From Actinomycetota bacterium (GTDB lineage Bacteria; Actinomycetota; Acidimicrobiia; Spongiisociales; UBA11373): a stretch of DNA of 64,000 nucleotides. Of this stretch, positions 25,329-44,571 are shown in pieces. The translations under genes and the position numbers were made by a program. The stretch lies in the NCBI GenBank assembly GCA_018821365.1, contig JAHJML010000138.1, forward strand, positions 1,744-65,743. Reading direction: 5' to 3'. Each line of letters opens with the position of its first letter. The stretch's first letter is position 1. Below the pieces are notes generated by a model. It saw only the letters and a program-made list of their open reading frames with translations. It was not told the DNA's origin and did no database searches.

Positions 25329-25979
25329 ATGCCGCCATCACCCGTCCCCGACGAACCGCTCTCGACGCGCCAGAGGATCCTGCAGGCCGCCGCCGCCCAG
25401 TTCGCCCGCCGCGGTTTCCACGGCACTTCGACCCGCGACATCGCCGCCGAGGTCGGGATCCGGCAACCATCGCTGTTCCACCACTTCACGACCAAACAGG
25501 CGATGCTGGCCGAACTCCTCGACCGCGATCTGCAGCCGGCACTCGAGCGGATCCGGCGCCATCGGGGGGCCAATCCGGCGGTTCGCCTGTACGCCTATCT
25601 GGTCGAGGACGTCGCCGCCCTGGTCGCCAGTCCCTTCGACGTGCGGGGCCTCTACAACGACGCCGTGCTGGAGGACCCGTCCCTGATCGAACAGCGCCGG
25701 GCACGGGAAGCGCTGCATGCCGAGATGAGGAGTCTGGTCACCGACGGGATCGCCGCAGGCGAGTTCCGCGCCTGCGACCCCGAGGTCGCCCGCCAGATGA
25801 TGACCGGGATGCTGCTCGACACGATCTGGGCGGCGGGCGTCCCCGCCGACCTGGACGTCGGGGGCCGTGCCAAGGAGGTGGCCGACTTCGTGCTTCGCGG
25901 GCTCCTCAGCGATCGTGGCCACGTCGCCCTGGTGGAACGGGAGGCGATGGCGCTGGCAACCCGTCCCGGCCGGGGCTGA
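25329..25979 (+). CDS. TetR family transcriptional regulator
   Basis: 216 aa with an N-terminal TetR HTH (RQRILQAAAAQFARRGFHGTSTRDIAAEVGIRQPSLFHHF). Confidence 0.85.
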   Translation: MPPSPVPDEPLSTRQRILQAAAAQFARRGFHGTSTRDIAAEVGIRQPSLFHHFTTKQAMLAELLDRDLQPALERIRRHRGANPAVRLYAYLVEDVAALVASPFDVRGLYNDAVLEDPSLIEQRRAREALHAEMRSLVTDGIAAGEFRACDPEVARQMMTGMLLDTIWAAGVPADLDVGGRAKEVADFVLRGLLSDRGHVALVEREAMALATRPGRG

Positions 25980-25998
25980 TCACGCCCGCCGGGCGGCC

Positions 25999-27231
25999 TC
26001 AGGCGGCGAAGACCTTCCTCATTGCCGCCAGCATGACGTCGATCTGCTCGTCGGTGATCACCAGCGGCGGGCACATCGACAGGTGGACCGGGGCGATCGG
26101 CCTCACGATGACGCCCTCCCCCAGGAGCGCGTCCCGGGCTTCCACCACGCTGCGCTCGGCCGGGAGCGAGATCCCCCACACCGCCCCTTCACCCCGCACA
26201 TCGGTGAGCAGGCCGTCCGATTGCATGGCCCGGAGACCGGCCTCCAGGCGGCCCCCGATCACCCGGGCGCGATCGAGCAGTCCCTCCCGCTCCTGGATCT
26301 CGATGGCCTTGAGGGCGGCCGCGCACGCCAACGGGTGCCCTGAGTAGGTGAAGCCGGTCCTCAGCAGGAACCCCTCGTTGGCTTCGAGTGCGGCTCGCAC
26401 CGCCGGCCCGACGATCACACCCGACAACGGGACGTACCCACTGGTCACCGCCTTCGCAAAGACGATCATGTCGGGCGTCACCCCGTAGAACTGACTGCCG
26501 AACCAGGTCCCGAGCCGCCCGAAACCGGTGATGACCTCGTCGTGGATCAGGTAGGCGCCGTAGGCATCGCACAGGTCCGCCAGATGCTCGAGATAGCCGG
26601 GCGGCGGCGGCCAGACGCCACCGGCACCCTGCAGCGGTTCGGTGATGATGGCGGCGATCTCGTCACCGTGGTCGGCGAACACCTGCTTCATGGCCTCTTC
26701 GTCATCGGCGCTCACGTTGATGACGCCGGGGACCAGCGATCCCCAGCCTTCCCGGTTGGGAGCGATGCCCTGCACCGAGGTCCCCCCGTAGTTGGTGCCG
26801 TGGTACCCGCGCTCGCGGCTGACGATGATCTGCCGCTCCGGGTGGCCCGCCTCGCGCTGGGCGATCCGCGCCAACTTCATGGCGGTGTCCACCGCCTCGG
26901 AACCGGAGGACCCCATGAACACCCTGGCATCCGCCAAGGGGGACAGTTCGACGATCCTGGCCGCCGCCTCCTCGGCCCTCGGGGTGGTGTACGGGTCGAA
27001 CGTGTGATAGGCCGCCAGGGTCCTCGCCTGCTCGGCGATCGCATCGGCCATCTCCTCCCGACCGTGGCCGATGTTGACGTACCACAGCGAAGCCATGCCG
27101 TCGATGTACTCCTTACCGGTGTCGTCCCAGACCACCGCCCCCTTTCCTCCGACGATCGAGAGGAAGTCCTGTTTGCGGGGCGGGGTGAATGGGTGCAAGA
27201 AGGGGCTGAGCATGGTGCCTCCCAGTGGCAC
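25999..27231 (-). CDS. class III (omega-type) PLP-dependent aminotransferase
   Basis: 410 aa (...SGSEAVDTAMKLAR..., DEVITGFGRLG, FAKAVTSGYVPL with the PLP lysine). Substrate not assignable. Confidence 0.85.
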   Translation of the reverse strand: MPLGGTMLSPFLHPFTPPRKQDFLSIVGGKGAVVWDDTGKEYIDGMASLWYVNIGHGREEMADAIAEQARTLAAYHTFDPYTTPRAEEAAARIVELSPLADARVFMGSSGSEAVDTAMKLARIAQREAGHPERQIIVSRERGYHGTNYGGTSVQGIAPNREGWGSLVPGVINVSADDEEAMKQVFADHGDEIAAIITEPLQGAGGVWPPPPGYLEHLADLCDAYGAYLIHDEVITGFGRLGTWFGSQFYGVTPDMIVFAKAVTSGYVPLSGVIVGPAVRAALEANEGFLLRTGFTYSGHPLACAAALKAIEIQEREGLLDRARVIGGRLEAGLRAMQSDGLLTDVRGEGAVWGISLPAERSVVEARDALLGEGVIVRPIAPVHLSMCPPLVITDEQIDVMLAAMRKVFAA

Positions 27232-27301
27232 TACCTATCGGTTGATAGGTAGTGTAGGTACGGGCATTGAGGCCCTGACGCTACACGGATGGAGGACCAG
27301 G

Positions 27302-41994: not shown

Positions 41995-42102
41995 GCCCAA
42001 CCCCCGTTGCCTATTGCCCCGCATCCTATCGGCCGGGCCGGCGACCGCTCCCCTCCGGCGGGTTCGGTTTGGAAAGGACTTCGCCTCCGAGCCAACGAAT
42101 CG

Positions 42103-42948
42103 TCAGCCGACGGCGATCAGGCCGAGGCCGATCCCCGCCAGTGCCAGACCCCCGAGTTGGATGCGGTTGAGCCGCTCGTCGAGCACCATCCTGGCCAGGA
42201 CCACCGTGCCGGCCGGGTAGAGGGATGAGACCAACAGCACCAGCGACACCAGGCCCGGTTCGTGGAGGGCGGCCAGCAGGAGGATGTTGGCGACCATGTC
42301 GGCGGCCCCCACCGTCAGGGCGACCCCGAGGACCGGGCCGGACACCAGCAGTCGGTGGCCCCTGACCAGCGCCACCGCACCGATGACCGGCAACGAGGCC
42401 ATCCGGGCCCCCACCAGCGGCCAGATGCCCGAGGCATCGCCGGTCCGAGAGATCAGGATGCCGAACAACCCGAACAGCACGCCGGCCAGGCTGCCGAGCA
42501 CCACCGCTCGCCGTACCGTCCCGGGAGCGTCCTCGTCGCCGTCTCCCGCCATACCGATCAACAGGATCGCCGGCAGCGCCATCGCCACCCCGACCCAGGC
42601 CAGAGTCGCCGGCCGCTCGCCGATCGCCACGCCGAACACCACCGGCAATGCGGCCCCGAGCAGGGCGGCGGCGGGAGCCGACACCGAGAACCGGGTGGTC
42701 GCCATGGCGTGGTACAGGATCACCAATCCCCCGCCTCCGGTGGCCCCGGCGGCCGCTCCCCATAGGAAGTCCGGGATCCCAGGCCCCCCCTGCCCCCACC
42801 ACGGGGCAACCGCCAGCACCACCGCCAACCCGGCGAGGTGGGCGGTGACGACGACCGAGACCGCCGGGGCCCGGCGGGAGGCGAGGCCGCCGACGAAATC
42901 GGCTCCGCCGAAGGCGAGAGCCGAGAGAGAGGCGAGGAACAGGGCCAT
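42103..42948 (-). CDS. EamA/DMT superfamily transporter
   Basis: 281 aa with 10 predicted TM helices and two EamA-like repeats. Confidence 0.75.
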   Translation of the reverse strand: MALFLASLSALAFGGADFVGGLASRRAPAVSVVVTAHLAGLAVVLAVAPWWGQGGPGIPDFLWGAAAGATGGGGLVILYHAMATTRFSVSAPAAALLGAALPVVFGVAIGERPATLAWVGVAMALPAILLIGMAGDGDEDAPGTVRRAVVLGSLAGVLFGLFGILISRTGDASGIWPLVGARMASLPVIGAVALVRGHRLLVSGPVLGVALTVGAADMVANILLLAALHEPGLVSLVLLVSSLYPAGTVVLARMVLDERLNRIQLGGLALAGIGLGLIAVG

Positions 42949-42978
42949 GTGAGCGATCAGGGTACGCCGGGGCCGGCT

Positions 42979-44571
42979 TCAGCCTGCCGGATGGTGCCTG
43001 CCGAACACACCCTCGAGCACCCCGGAGACCTCCCCGAGGGTGGCATTGCGCTCCAGAGCCGCCTTCATGGGGTACAGCAGGTTGCCGCCCTCTGCGGCCA
43101 CCCGGCCGACCTCGGCGAGCGCATCCTCCACCAACGGCGTGTCCCTCCCGGCGCGCACCCCGGCGACGAGCGCCGCCTGCTTCGACTCCAGGTCCGTATC
43201 GAGCACCAGTGTCGGGATCGGGTGGACCTCGGCAGAGGTGAACCGGTTGACCCCCACCACCACCGATTCCCCGGACTCCTGGCGCTGCGCCTCCCGGTAG
43301 GCGGAGTCTTCGATGATCCGCTGCACCACCCCCTGCTCGACGGCCGCCACCGCGCCGCCTGCGGCATCGATCTCCCGGATGACCAGGTTGGCCGCTTCCT
43401 CGACTGCGTCGGTGAGCGACTCGATGAAGTACGACCCGGCCAACGGGTCGACGGTGTCGGCCAAGCCCGCCTCGTAGCCGATGATCTGCTGGGTGCGGAG
43501 GGCGATCATCGCCGAGTGCTCGGTCGGCAGCGCCAACGCCTCGTCGAAGGCGTTGGTGTGCAGCGATTGGGTGCCACCCAGGACGGCGGCCAGTGCCTGC
43601 AGGGCGGTGCGAACGATGTTGTTCTCGGGTTGCTGGGCGGTCAGCGTGCTGCCCGCCGTCTGCGTGTGGAACCGGAGCTTCCATGAGTCCGGATGGACGG
43701 CCCCCATCCGATCCCTCATCAACCTGGCCCACATCCGCCTGGCCGCCCGGAACTTGGCGACCTCCTCGAAGAGGTTGCGATGGCTGTTCCAGAAGAACGA
43801 CAGCCGGGGAGCGAACTCGTCCACGTCGAGGCCCGCCGCCACCGCCGCTTCGACGTAGGCGAGGCCGTTGGAGATGGTGAGGCCGATCTCCTCGGCGGCC
43901 GTCGACCCGGCCTCCCTGATGTGATAGCCGCTGATCGAGATGGTGTTCCACGCCGGCAACTCGGCGGCGCAGTAGCCGAACAGGTCGGTCACCAGCCTCA
44001 TCGACGGCCGGGGCGGGTAGATGTAGGTCCCCCGCGCCGCGTACTCCTTGAGGATGTCGTTCTGAACGGTGCCCCTGATGTTGGTGCGGTCGACGCCCTG
44101 GCGCTCGGCGACGATCTGATAGAGCAGCAGCAGGATGGCAGCCGTGGCGTTGATCGTCATCGACGTGGACACCTCGCCGAGGGGAATCCCGCCGAACAGC
44201 CGCTCGACATCGGCGACCGAGTCGACGGCGACCCCCACCTTGCCGACCTCCCCGGCCGCCCGCGGATCGTCGGAGTCGATCCCCATCTGGGTGGGGAGGT
44301 CGAAGGCTACCGACAGCCCGGTCTGGCCGGCGTCGAGGAGTGCCCGAAACCGCTCATTGGTGGCATCGGCGCTGCCGAAACCTGCGTACTGGCGCATCGT
44401 CCAGAGCCGCCCGCGATACATCGTCGGGTAGGGACCCCGCGTAAAGGGAAAGGAGCCCGGTTCGCCGAGTTGCGCGTCCGCATCCCAACCGTCGAGATCG
44501 CCGGCATCGTATGCCGCCGCGACCTCGATGCCGCTGGTGGTTTGGGGCGGTGTCTCGGAGTTCTCGGGCAT
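42979..44571 (-). CDS. methylmalonyl-CoA mutase family catalytic (large) subunit without B12-binding domain
   Basis: About 530 aa TIM-barrel substrate domain ([22 protein letters not shown] ... FFWNSHRN ... [17 protein letters not shown]). The protein ends before any Rossmann B12-binding domain. Start taken as MPENSE (44571) or MCAWITVL (44595). Confidence 0.8.

Follow-up and report, generated by a model that had tools for sequence, protein, structure and literature searches.

A candidate TetR operator, two WOR-family oxidoreductases and their neighbours in a 64-kb window of an Acidimicrobiia genome

Gene content and chromosomal setting of the region

The analysis presented here concerns positions 25329-44571 of a 64-kb stretch of DNA from an Actinomycetota bacterium of the class Acidimicrobiia, the whole of which is called the window below. 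A sequence-only reading had described these 19 kb as a TetR-headed island that unites aminotransferases, an L-2-hydroxyglutarate (L-2HG) oxidase, aldehyde oxidoreductases of the WOR family with their cofactor-maturation genes, a transporter and a mutase subunit in one catabolic system. At about 70% GC, the window gives raw lists of open reading frames (ORFs) that are crowded with shadow frames. Genes were called from third-position GC bias (GC3 frame bias) with starts set by ribosome-binding sites, and were named by Pfam and NCBIfam profile searches with curated cutoffs. All the gene families listed earlier were confirmed at their positions, and the resulting inventory, which includes the operator-like sites scored with a position weight matrix (PWM), is as follows.

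25300-25321: operator-like palindrome, core CTATC-ATTC-GATAG at 25304-25317 (PWM 21.9 bits)
25329-25979, plus strand: tetR, TetR-family regulator, 216 aa (PF00440, E 5e-17, and TetR C-terminal domains)
25999-27213, minus strand: AT1, class-III omega-aminotransferase of the pyruvate-type subgroup, 404 aa (PF00202, E 9e-91)
27229-27254: perfect 11+4+11 palindrome CACTACCTATC-GGTT-GATAGGTAGTG in the 88-nt divergent AT1/UNK intergenic region (PWM 33.9 bits at 27231-27252)
27302-28642, plus strand: UNK, two-domain P-loop protein, 446 aa (Walker A TGSGKS)
28639-29856, minus strand: LhgO, L-2HG oxidase, FAD, DAO family (NF008726, 486 bits against a cutoff of 299; PF01266)
29979-31058, plus strand: Iso_dh, Iso_dh-family dehydrogenase, LeuB-type 3-isopropylmalate dehydrogenase/tartrate-dehydrogenase-like, 359 aa
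31055-32074, plus strand: GAPDH, type II (archaeal-type) phosphorylating glyceraldehyde-3-phosphate dehydrogenase, 339 aa (NF003251, 373 bits against a cutoff of 185)
32077-33303, plus strand: PGK, phosphoglycerate kinase, 408 aa (PF00162, E 6e-104)
33320-35161, plus strand: AORL, divergent Class I WOR/AOR family member, 613 aa (AFOR_N and AFOR_C, 113.7 and 137.9 bits)
35171-36460, minus strand: AT2, class-III aminotransferase, GabT/ArgD-like, 429 aa (PF00202, E 2e-88)
36480-38450, minus strand: MoeA-PBP, fusion of MoeA with a PBP_like domain (NF011068, 684 against 534 bits)
38447-39952, minus strand: MoaD-MoeA, MoeA with a ThiS/MoaD-like N-terminus (Pfam MoeA domains, and ThiS over residues 4-90)
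40033-42024, minus strand: AOR, canonical Class I aldehyde:ferredoxin oxidoreductase-type WOR, 663 aa (AFOR_N and AFOR_C, 248.5 and 373.2 bits)
42025-42030: left operator half-site CCTATC, directly upstream of the AOR start
42103-42948, minus strand: EamA, EamA/DMT transporter, 281 aa (PF00892, two repeats)
42979-44571, minus strand: MCM, catalytic subunit of a split-type methylmalonyl-CoA mutase, 530 aa (PF01642, E 2e-213; TIGR00641, 727 against 304 bits)

The setting of these genes is not that of an island. GC stays between 0.67 and 0.74 over all 64 kb with no step at 25329-44571, a search of the region returned no tRNA, and the called genes include no integrase, transposase or other mobility gene. 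Horizontal acquisition, to which the WORs and the archaeal-type GAPDH might point as unusual genes for an actinobacterium, is hardly credible against this flat profile, and synteny with related Acidimicrobiia, a class of which type II GAPDH is typical, extends to the flanks (the propionyl-CoA carboxylase, or PCC, genes and PBP1A) and to most of the content. The wider neighbourhood encodes core functions, among them AdoHcy hydrolase, PGI, PGM, F420 ligase, Fpg, UDP-glucose dehydrogenase, LCP transferase, biotin ligase, PCC, PBP1A, Sir2, leucyl aminopeptidase and ATP sulfurylase, and matches in databases assign the DNA to an uncultured Actinobacteria/Acidimicrobiia metagenome-assembled genome. 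The description of the region as TetR-headed fared no better, because the next gene converges on tetR, the strand flips six times inside 25329-44571, which implies at least six transcription units, and the operator occurs at two places only in the 64 kb. A promoter scan of the region reported 0 promoters and terminator counts at chance level, and was uninformative.

The palindromic operator and the genes that accompany AORL

The palindrome to which the sequence-only reading had drawn attention at 25304-25317 exists and belongs to a motif that recurs in relatives. In its full extent it ends 8 nt before the start codon of tetR and overlaps the ribosome-binding site of that gene, which lies 85 nt downstream of the PCC alpha-subunit gene in the same direction and has no NCBIfam equivalog above cutoff. 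The strongest operator-like site of the window is the perfect palindrome at 27229-27254, just upstream of the ATG of AT1 (27213, with the ribosome-binding site GGGAGG). These two are the only exact matches in the window to CTATC-N4-GATAG (0.43 expected by chance at one mismatch or fewer), and they are also the only window sites to beat the shuffle maximum of 13.9 bits (20 shuffles, 64 kb) when scored with a PWM built from the sites of related loci. The same scan of the window found nothing above the shuffles before lhgO, the Iso_dh operon or MCM/EamA.

The distribution of the motif in relatives was assessed in 80 loci taken from contigs of one genome per species (49 from Actinomycetota and 31 from other phyla, cited here by L numbers), each anchored on AORL with at most 10 kb of flank per side; the proteins of the region were mapped onto them by tblastn, and presence was counted only where the flank sufficed. 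The operator core has 26 exact matches in the 1.19 Mb of these loci, against 0.4 expected and a maximum of 4 in 200 shuffles. Nineteen of the 26 precede the start of tetR, AT1, UNK, AORL or AOR by no more than about 120 nt; the remaining seven have no identified gene start nearby, and none of the 26 falls inside an identified gene. The extended consensus in relatives reads ACCTATC-GATC-GATAGGTAG, with CCTATC-N4-GATAGG as its short form. The motif stands 5' of AT1 in L001-L005, L022, L025, L026 and L042, and loci fetched later added further sites before AOR (in the EamA/AOR gap), before an OTCase-like gene and before an amidase/isochorismatase pair. AT1 itself is found at 74-82% identity in 10 related loci, and TetR relatives of 57-59% identity adjoin it in L001 and lie near it in L016. 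TetR most likely binds CCTATC-N4-GATAGG before its own gene and in the divergent AT1/UNK promoter, as the placement of these sites indicates. At 18952-18965 of L087, whose AORL is 83% identical, the operator is intact before AOR where the window has only the half-site CCTATC, which suggests that TetR has only recently ceased to control the AOR operon. Compared across relatives and window, the operator distribution points to a TetR regulon whose earlier extent would have taken in both WORs as well as the aminotransferase and UNK, and which now covers tetR, AT1 and UNK.

Synteny around AORL divides the genes of the region into those that recur with it and those that do not. MoeA-PBP lies near AORL in 14 of 30 informative Actinomycetota loci, MoaD-MoeA in 11 of 26, AOR in 9 of 22, UNK in 10 of 31 and AT1 in 8 of 29. 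LhgO, Iso_dh, GAPDH, PGK, AT2, EamA and MCM were found in 1 locus each of the 49, with 20-43 informative loci per gene, and this comparative-genomic result argues against the 19 kb as a travelling unit. Together, LhgO, AT2, EamA and MCM occur in the closest sublineage only. In the 31 loci of other phyla (Planctomycetota and 'Deltaproteobacteria' metagenome-assembled genomes, MAGs), AORL is accompanied by the MoeA pair in 2 cases and by UNK in 1, and by no other gene of the region. In a neighbour-joining ordering, the AORL of the window falls among sequences that have the AT1/UNK/MoeA/AOR context, and a sister paralogue group is without it. The recurrent order runs from AT1 on the minus strand through a protein of 377-379 aa with the fold of guanidino-group-modifying enzymes (GME-fold), UNK and AORL on the plus strand to MoeA-PBP, MoaD-MoeA, three small genes and AOR on the minus strand.

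The locus L087 illustrates how this order has been reshuffled near the window. It reads MFS and LhgO, then Iso_dh-GAPDH-PGK-AORL, then MoeA-PBP, MoaD-MoeA, the three small genes, AOR, EamA and MCM, and finally PBP1A; relative to it, the window has UNK, AT1, tetR and PCC in place of MFS, shows an insertion of AT2 behind MoeA-PBP and a loss of the three small genes. In the L087 genome, AT1 and a GME-fold-UNK-OTCase-like block lie tens of kb away on the same contig, by CoA-transferase, amidase and urease genes. The closest relatives thus show ongoing rearrangement. The three small genes between MoaD-MoeA and AOR (L081 15297-16981, L082 15247-16949, L087 15264-16963) encode proteins of about 188, 242 and 145 aa, the first a membrane protein and the third lipoprotein-like, have no Pfam match, and correspond to a gap of only 80 nt in the window. 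A search of the window for companion genes of relatives gave no match to these three, to the GME-fold proteins, amidase, arginase or alanine dehydrogenase, nor to the CoA-transferase, Aldedh, MR_MLE or corrinoid proteins.

We read the region, with a probability of roughly 0.7, as ordinary core chromosome of Acidimicrobiia type in which independent modules have come to lie side by side by local rearrangement and in which a remnant of a TetR regulon survives. A first module would consist of tetR, the convergent AT1 and the divergent UNK, a small TetR regulon in which TetR would leave the operator when its ligand is present. The second would be lhgO alone, the third the Iso_dh-GAPDH-PGK triad with AORL as fourth gene, and the fourth the minus-strand cluster of MCM, EamA, AOR, MoaD-MoeA, MoeA-PBP and AT2, whose MoeA paralogues are predicted to insert the metal into the pterin cofactor of the two single-subunit WORs. 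As to their history, both WORs, the MoeA pair, AT1 and UNK may go back to an ancestral gene set under TetR control; relatives keep this set intact, and in them it also holds guanidino-group-modifying, arginase-family, amidase and alanine-dehydrogenase genes. In such a set, an amine would first be freed from a guanidino or ureido compound, aminotransferases would then convert amines or omega-amino acids to aldehydes, and the WORs would oxidise the aldehydes to acids while reducing a ferredoxin. The pyruvate-type subgroup of AT1 fits this sequence of amine release, transamination and oxidation, as do its neighbours in L081, where AT1 is followed by alanine-dehydrogenase-family and arginase-family genes. 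Of the set, the window would have kept only fragments: the pair AT1 and UNK, still preceded by the operator, and AT2, which probably shares a transcript with AOR.

The smaller core of TetR operator, omega-aminotransferase, UNK and two Class I WORs with MoeA genes has support from the comparative and motif data, and all its parts belong to known families. A more tentative proposal, which we regard as possible, is that Acidimicrobiia may carry an undescribed TetR regulon defined by CCTATC-N4-GATAGG, which would comprise omega-aminotransferases, guanidino/ureido enzymes (the GME-fold protein, an arginase-family protein, an amidase and an OTCase-like protein), UNK, and two WORs of the tungsten- or molybdenum-pterin type with their MoeA proteins. 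If true, this would mean a pterin-dependent, ferredoxin-reducing catabolism of amines and guanidino compounds in a largely aerobic class, with WORs replacing NAD(P)-dependent aldehyde dehydrogenases; the window would then show what rearrangement has left of it, with AT2 now part of the AOR operon and without the GabD-type dehydrogenase that a relative has. The pairing of operator and TetR is clear enough to be tested and would define a regulon across uncultured Acidimicrobiia that links aminotransferases to WORs.

Several observations weigh against the view of independent modules and a TetR remnant. Synteny was sampled around AORL only, and genes scored as absent may lie farther off in the same genomes. 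The close sublineage (the window, L076, L083, L084, L087 and L082) has LhgO, EamA, MCM and the WORs still close together, and this proximity could reflect function rather than shared descent. The match of operator to TetR is drawn from position and recurrence, and the TetR proteins that relatives encode beside the motif share only 36-59% identity with that of the window. The aldehyde substrates, the choice between tungsten and molybdenum and the ferredoxin partner are likewise inferred; two MoeA paralogues fit either metal, and the ferredoxin/polyferredoxin motif CxxCxxCxxxC[P/G/A] was absent from all six frames of the 64-kb window, which by this search has no ferredoxin gene.

The WORs, UNK and LhgO compared with known systems

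The two WORs differ considerably from each other (26% identity). AOR is the more canonical, with E-values of 6e-74 for AFOR_N and 2e-111 for AFOR_C, and it matches the aldehyde oxidoreductase of Pyrococcus furiosus (PfAOR, 1AOR) at E 1e-102 and 9MQX at 3e-103; AORL, the last gene of its plus-strand operon, matches 1AOR at E 4e-29. The [4Fe-4S] ligands of AORL, a CxxCxxxC motif and a distal Cys (C322, C325, C329, C516), are invariant in 14 homologues, and in AOR the ligands are found as CfsCairC and as a vnvC segment that aligns to the PfAOR ligand. Of the aldehyde-oxidising residues, T276, E352 and Y460 of AORL correspond to PfAOR Thr243, Glu313 and Tyr427, and H476 corresponds to His448 only with a one-position shift of the alignment; AOR retains the Thr, Glu and His of the set and has His instead of Tyr427. 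MoeA-PBP combines MoeA_N, MoCF_biosynth, MoeA_C and PBP_like domains, and residues 10-90 of MoaD-MoeA are SAMP1-like. No gene for a small polyferredoxin (WorS) or an FAD subunit adjoins either WOR, whose neighbours are PGK, AT2, MoeA and EamA.

In the published scheme, Class I WORs consist of WorL only and are often accompanied by a ThiS-like WorX, and two MoeA copies are taken as a sign that both tungsten and molybdenum cofactors are used (PMC13328260). By their sequences, both enzymes of the window are Class I WORs in this scheme. They share with P. furiosus AOR and the Brevibacillus massiliensis WOR (BmWOR) the AFOR domains, the cluster ligands and the active-site residues, and they have MoeA genes and a ThiS/MoaD-like module as neighbours, as in systems with a nearby WorX; the ThiS-like module here is, however, fused to MoeA rather than encoded as a free gene. 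A second point of comparison is the aorABCDE operon of Aromatoleum aromaticum, whose tungsten AOR oxidises phenylacetaldehyde from phenylalanine degradation and whose operon includes MoaD-like maturation genes (PMC6365974). There as in the window a WOR stands next to MoaD-like maturation genes, and an aldehyde derived from an amino compound is oxidised, as is proposed here. The A. aromaticum enzyme is, in contrast, a three-subunit, NAD-reducing Class III enzyme, whereas the WORs of the window stand alone and have MoeA genes, not MoaD-like genes only, as neighbours.

Most characterised Class I WORs, including PfAOR and BmWOR, are broad-spectrum aldehyde detoxifiers (PMC13328260), and the two WORs of the window might be general detoxifiers as well, with their closeness to AT1 and AT2 being incidental. 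Many relatives of AORL, among them the paralogous group and the Planctomycetota sequences, do have unrelated neighbours, in keeping with such a role. In several genomes, however, the aminotransferase, UNK, AORL and AOR have the same operator at their 5' side, which argues for co-regulation in the orthologous group, and we consider an incidental association unlikely.

The AORL group occurs in Acidimicrobiia, Planctomycetota and 'Deltaproteobacteria' MAGs and is uncharacterised; a literature search found nothing specific on COG2403 or on WORs in Acidimicrobiia. AORL frequently occurs twice in the same genome (in the MAGs of L001/L024, L009/L026, L012/L014, L013/L047 and L015/L022, and in tandem at L007 1085-5318). 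One of its paralogue groups has a conserved context of its own, with a proteasome activator, a penicillin amidase and a Na/Ca exchanger. As a clue to function, the neighbours of distant AORL relatives proved unrelated, and add a PQQ-like propeller and a histidine kinase. In L081, AOR is split into AFOR_C and AFOR_N ORFs (16978-18935), either a frameshift pseudogene or a long-read assembly error, and a molybdate/tungstate-type ABC transporter (PBP_like_2 protein and TOBE-domain ATPase, 20582-21812) adjoins the WOR cluster; the window has no such transporter.

The operon that ends in AORL is tight, with gaps of -4, 2 and 16 nt between Iso_dh, GAPDH, PGK and AORL, the GAPDH start overlapping the Iso_dh stop. 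A frameshifted AOR at 29355-32074, suspected from a change of frame, was found to be these two overlapping genes, Iso_dh and GAPDH. Iso_dh passes the cutoff for actinobacterial 3-isopropylmalate dehydrogenase (PRK03437, 399.2 bits against 393) and fails both curated cutoffs for tartrate dehydrogenase (TIGR02089, 448.7 against 470.4), on which ground an assignment as tartrate dehydrogenase is rejected; tartrate and malate had been suggested as trial substrates. Homologues of the type II GAPDH at 76-95% identity are common in Acidimicrobiia MAGs, and in two genomes, at 78-80% identity, the triad has serA, purA, purB and a class-V aminotransferase gene as neighbours, and no WOR follows PGK. The triad has the coordinates 29979-33303 in the window, 7559-10300 in L085 and 6890-10302 in L086. 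AORL follows PGK only in the sublineage of the window (L076, L083, L084 and L087, AORL 83-85% identical). Since the triad exists elsewhere without a WOR, the plus-strand operon appears to be three central-metabolism genes with an appended WOR, and Iso_dh-GAPDH-PGK is, judged by these neighbourhoods, a conserved central-metabolism triad of Acidimicrobiia that is independent of WORs.

GAPOR, the glyceraldehyde-3-phosphate:ferredoxin oxidoreductase, is represented by WOR clades 23 and 20. The operon invites the alternative that AORL is GAPOR-like and works with GAPDH and PGK, either as a non-phosphorylating glycolytic bypass or in an ATP-driven reduction of ferredoxin from NAD(P)H, with UNK, a relative of cyclic 2,3-diphosphoglycerate synthetase (cDPGS), also acting on phosphoglycerates. 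The tight operon kept in L076, L083, L084 and L087, the aldehyde-oxidising residues retained in AORL and the standing of cDPGS as best structural match of UNK are all compatible with this. The link to GAPDH and PGK is confined, however, to the sublineage of the window, other Actinomycetota loci and all other phyla have different AORL neighbours, and the triad occurs without AORL; UNK, moreover, is only 15% identical to cDPGS, and in relatives its operon also encodes a protein of guanidino-modifying fold and one that is OTCase-like. We therefore hold a GAPOR-like role to be quite improbable.

UNK deserves attention in its own right. No Pfam or NCBIfam family covers it beyond a weak cobW match, and its relatives (74-86% identical among the 120 best of more than 8000 matches) carry the source labels 'GTPase' or 'cyclic 2,3-diphosphoglycerate synthase'. 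Against the PDB sequence of cDPGS, UNK gives a marginal match (E 0.0028 over about 100 residues). Its AlphaFold model (pLDDT 84) finds its best full-length fold match by Foldseek in 8ork/8oru (E 1.5e-16, 15% identity, about 505 columns, TM 0.41-0.46), with LpxK and HypB/UreG ranking behind, which are themselves reported as relatives of cDPGS (PMC10690619). The UNK family has the Walker A motif, preceded by an invariant Arg. On this structural comparison UNK is probably a remote full-length homologue of cDPGS, with the N-terminal domain of about 125 residues and the P-loop kinase-like domain seen in the Methanothermus fervidus enzyme (8ORK/8ORU; PMC10690619). Unlike that enzyme, UNK occurs in mesophilic bacteria, at only 15% identity, and its gene is accompanied by those for an aminotransferase, a protein of guanidino-modifying fold, an OTCase-like protein or a WOR, not by that for 2-phosphoglycerate kinase. 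In relatives (L081 7421-9930; L088 8839-12376), UNK lies in an operon after a GME-fold protein of 377-379 aa that is weakly arginine deiminase (ADI)-like, and the operon continues into either AORL or the OTCase-like gene. These partners point to nitrogen-rich substrates rather than phosphoglycerates, and the operon suggests a step of an undescribed pathway of the deiminase/carbamoyltransferase type. As a relative of cDPGS that is strongly conserved in bacteria, UNK is a separate lead for experiments.

The remaining question is whether LhgO and AT2 belong to a pathway with the WORs. lhgO is monocistronic, converging on UNK and diverging from the Iso_dh operon, with its start at ATG 29856. AT2 begins 19 nt downstream of the MoeA-PBP gene on the strand of AOR, which makes co-transcription with AOR probable. 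The two aminotransferases are 32% identical; the best NCBIfam matches of AT2 are PRK05769, PRK08117 and TIGR00700, and those of AT1 are PRK07481/07480/06541 and the omega-aminotransferase AptA, all of them under cutoff. The earlier remark that CsiD is missing holds for the called genes of the 64-kb window, where no CsiD-family match was found, though the gene could be elsewhere in the genome. No GabD-type or Aldedh-family gene was called in the window, and tblastn with the Aldedh protein of L082 was also empty.

In L082 (73% AORL identity), MR_MLE, LhgO, AT2 and Aldedh lie left of AORL, and the right-hand cluster is the same up to PBP1A. This AT2/LhgO/Aldedh cluster resembles, by analogy, the lhgO-gabDT part of the E. 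coli csiD-lhgO-gabDTP operon, and the idea that a WOR replaces the aldehyde dehydrogenase adjoining AT2 in L082 is reasonable as a candidate and testable. The window shares with the E. coli operon an LhgO above the equivalog cutoff and a GabT-like aminotransferase nearby. It differs in having no CsiD, GabD-type dehydrogenase or GabP, and in that LhgO and AT2 are split by an opposite-strand operon and have no common operator. With neither CsiD, nor an aldehyde dehydrogenase, nor a ferredoxin in the window, LhgO cannot be tied to the product of AOR. Its proposed role as a downstream step is not supported, given that the window has no source of L-2HG and lhgO has no operator.

The same evidence bears on the proposal that a single catabolic system under TetR, with omega-amino acids or diamines as substrates and as a tungsten variant of the glutarate/L-2HG route, fills all 19 kb. 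In it, an aminotransferase would yield a semialdehyde, AOR would oxidise this to the acid with the help of ferredoxin, and LhgO would turn L-2HG into 2-oxoglutarate. The attraction of the proposal lies in the presence of aminotransferases, WORs and LhgO together, in the operator that ties an aminotransferase to the WORs in relatives, in the position of AT2 after the AOR and MoeA genes on the same strand, in the clustering of AT2, LhgO and an aldehyde dehydrogenase in L082 as in E. coli lhgO-gabDT, and in a lysine 6-transaminase 14 kb away. The window holds neither CsiD nor another route from glutarate to L-2HG, however, and the operator is missing from the promoter regions of lhgO, the Iso_dh operon, MCM, EamA and AOR (the last with its half-site). 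The genes do not co-travel, the triad and MCM have conserved housekeeping contexts of their own, and the strand switches six times. Synteny and these unrelated housekeeping roles, the two grounds on which the proposal was open to refutation, have largely refuted it; a single system of this kind now seems improbable, and the 19 kb should not be carried forward as one. The new tungsten-dependent pathway as drawn is not supported. What stands of it is the sequence from aminotransferase through aldehyde to WOR, which is plausible for the subset of genes marked by the shared operator in relatives and by AT2 beside AOR, though not for the island as a whole.

Propionyl-CoA genes and other observations in the window

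The place of MCM in the modular arrangement is better explained by genes outside the region; these are listed here together with the separate lysine 6-transaminase.

21210-21887: biotin ligase (BirA)
21937-23487: carboxyltransferase, PCC-beta type
23484-25244: biotin carboxylase/BCCP protein, PCC alpha
55425-55967: PduO-type cobalamin adenosyltransferase
58619-60058: L-lysine 6-transaminase (TIGR03251, 551 bits against a cutoff of 520.8)

PF01642 spans residues 10-524 of the 530 residues of MCM, which leaves no fused B12-binding domain, and a catalytic subunit without this domain is the normal state of split mutases. The protein carries the sequences TMY (Tyr) and ARGTY (Arg), which we take to be typical of methylmalonyl specificity. 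The B12 motif DxHxxG...SxL...GG occurs in no real gene of the window in six frames, the lone match being in the wrong frame inside the PBP1A gene. A functional pairing of MCM with the PCC and biotin ligase genes (21210-25244) and the adenosyltransferase (55425-55967) fits these data, and PCC, biotin ligase, adenosyltransferase and MCM outline a route from propionyl-CoA to succinyl-CoA. The arrangement is like a split (archaeal-type) MCM and PCC system in its B12-domain-free subunit and in the presence of PCC, BirA and adenosyltransferase in the same window, and differs in that no B12-binding subunit, MeaB or epimerase was found in the window.

The lysine 6-aminotransferase that had been placed elsewhere in the window is confirmed at 58619-60058. 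No piperideine-6-carboxylate dehydrogenase lies near it, and two GNAT acetyltransferase genes (60107-61385) follow directly downstream. Finally, four large ORFs with good coding statistics have no or minimal family match, at 6710-8902 (730 aa), 11221-14055 (944 aa), 48533-51322 (929 aa, with a SpoIID domain only) and 51382-52644 (420 aa), and all four lie among cell-envelope genes.

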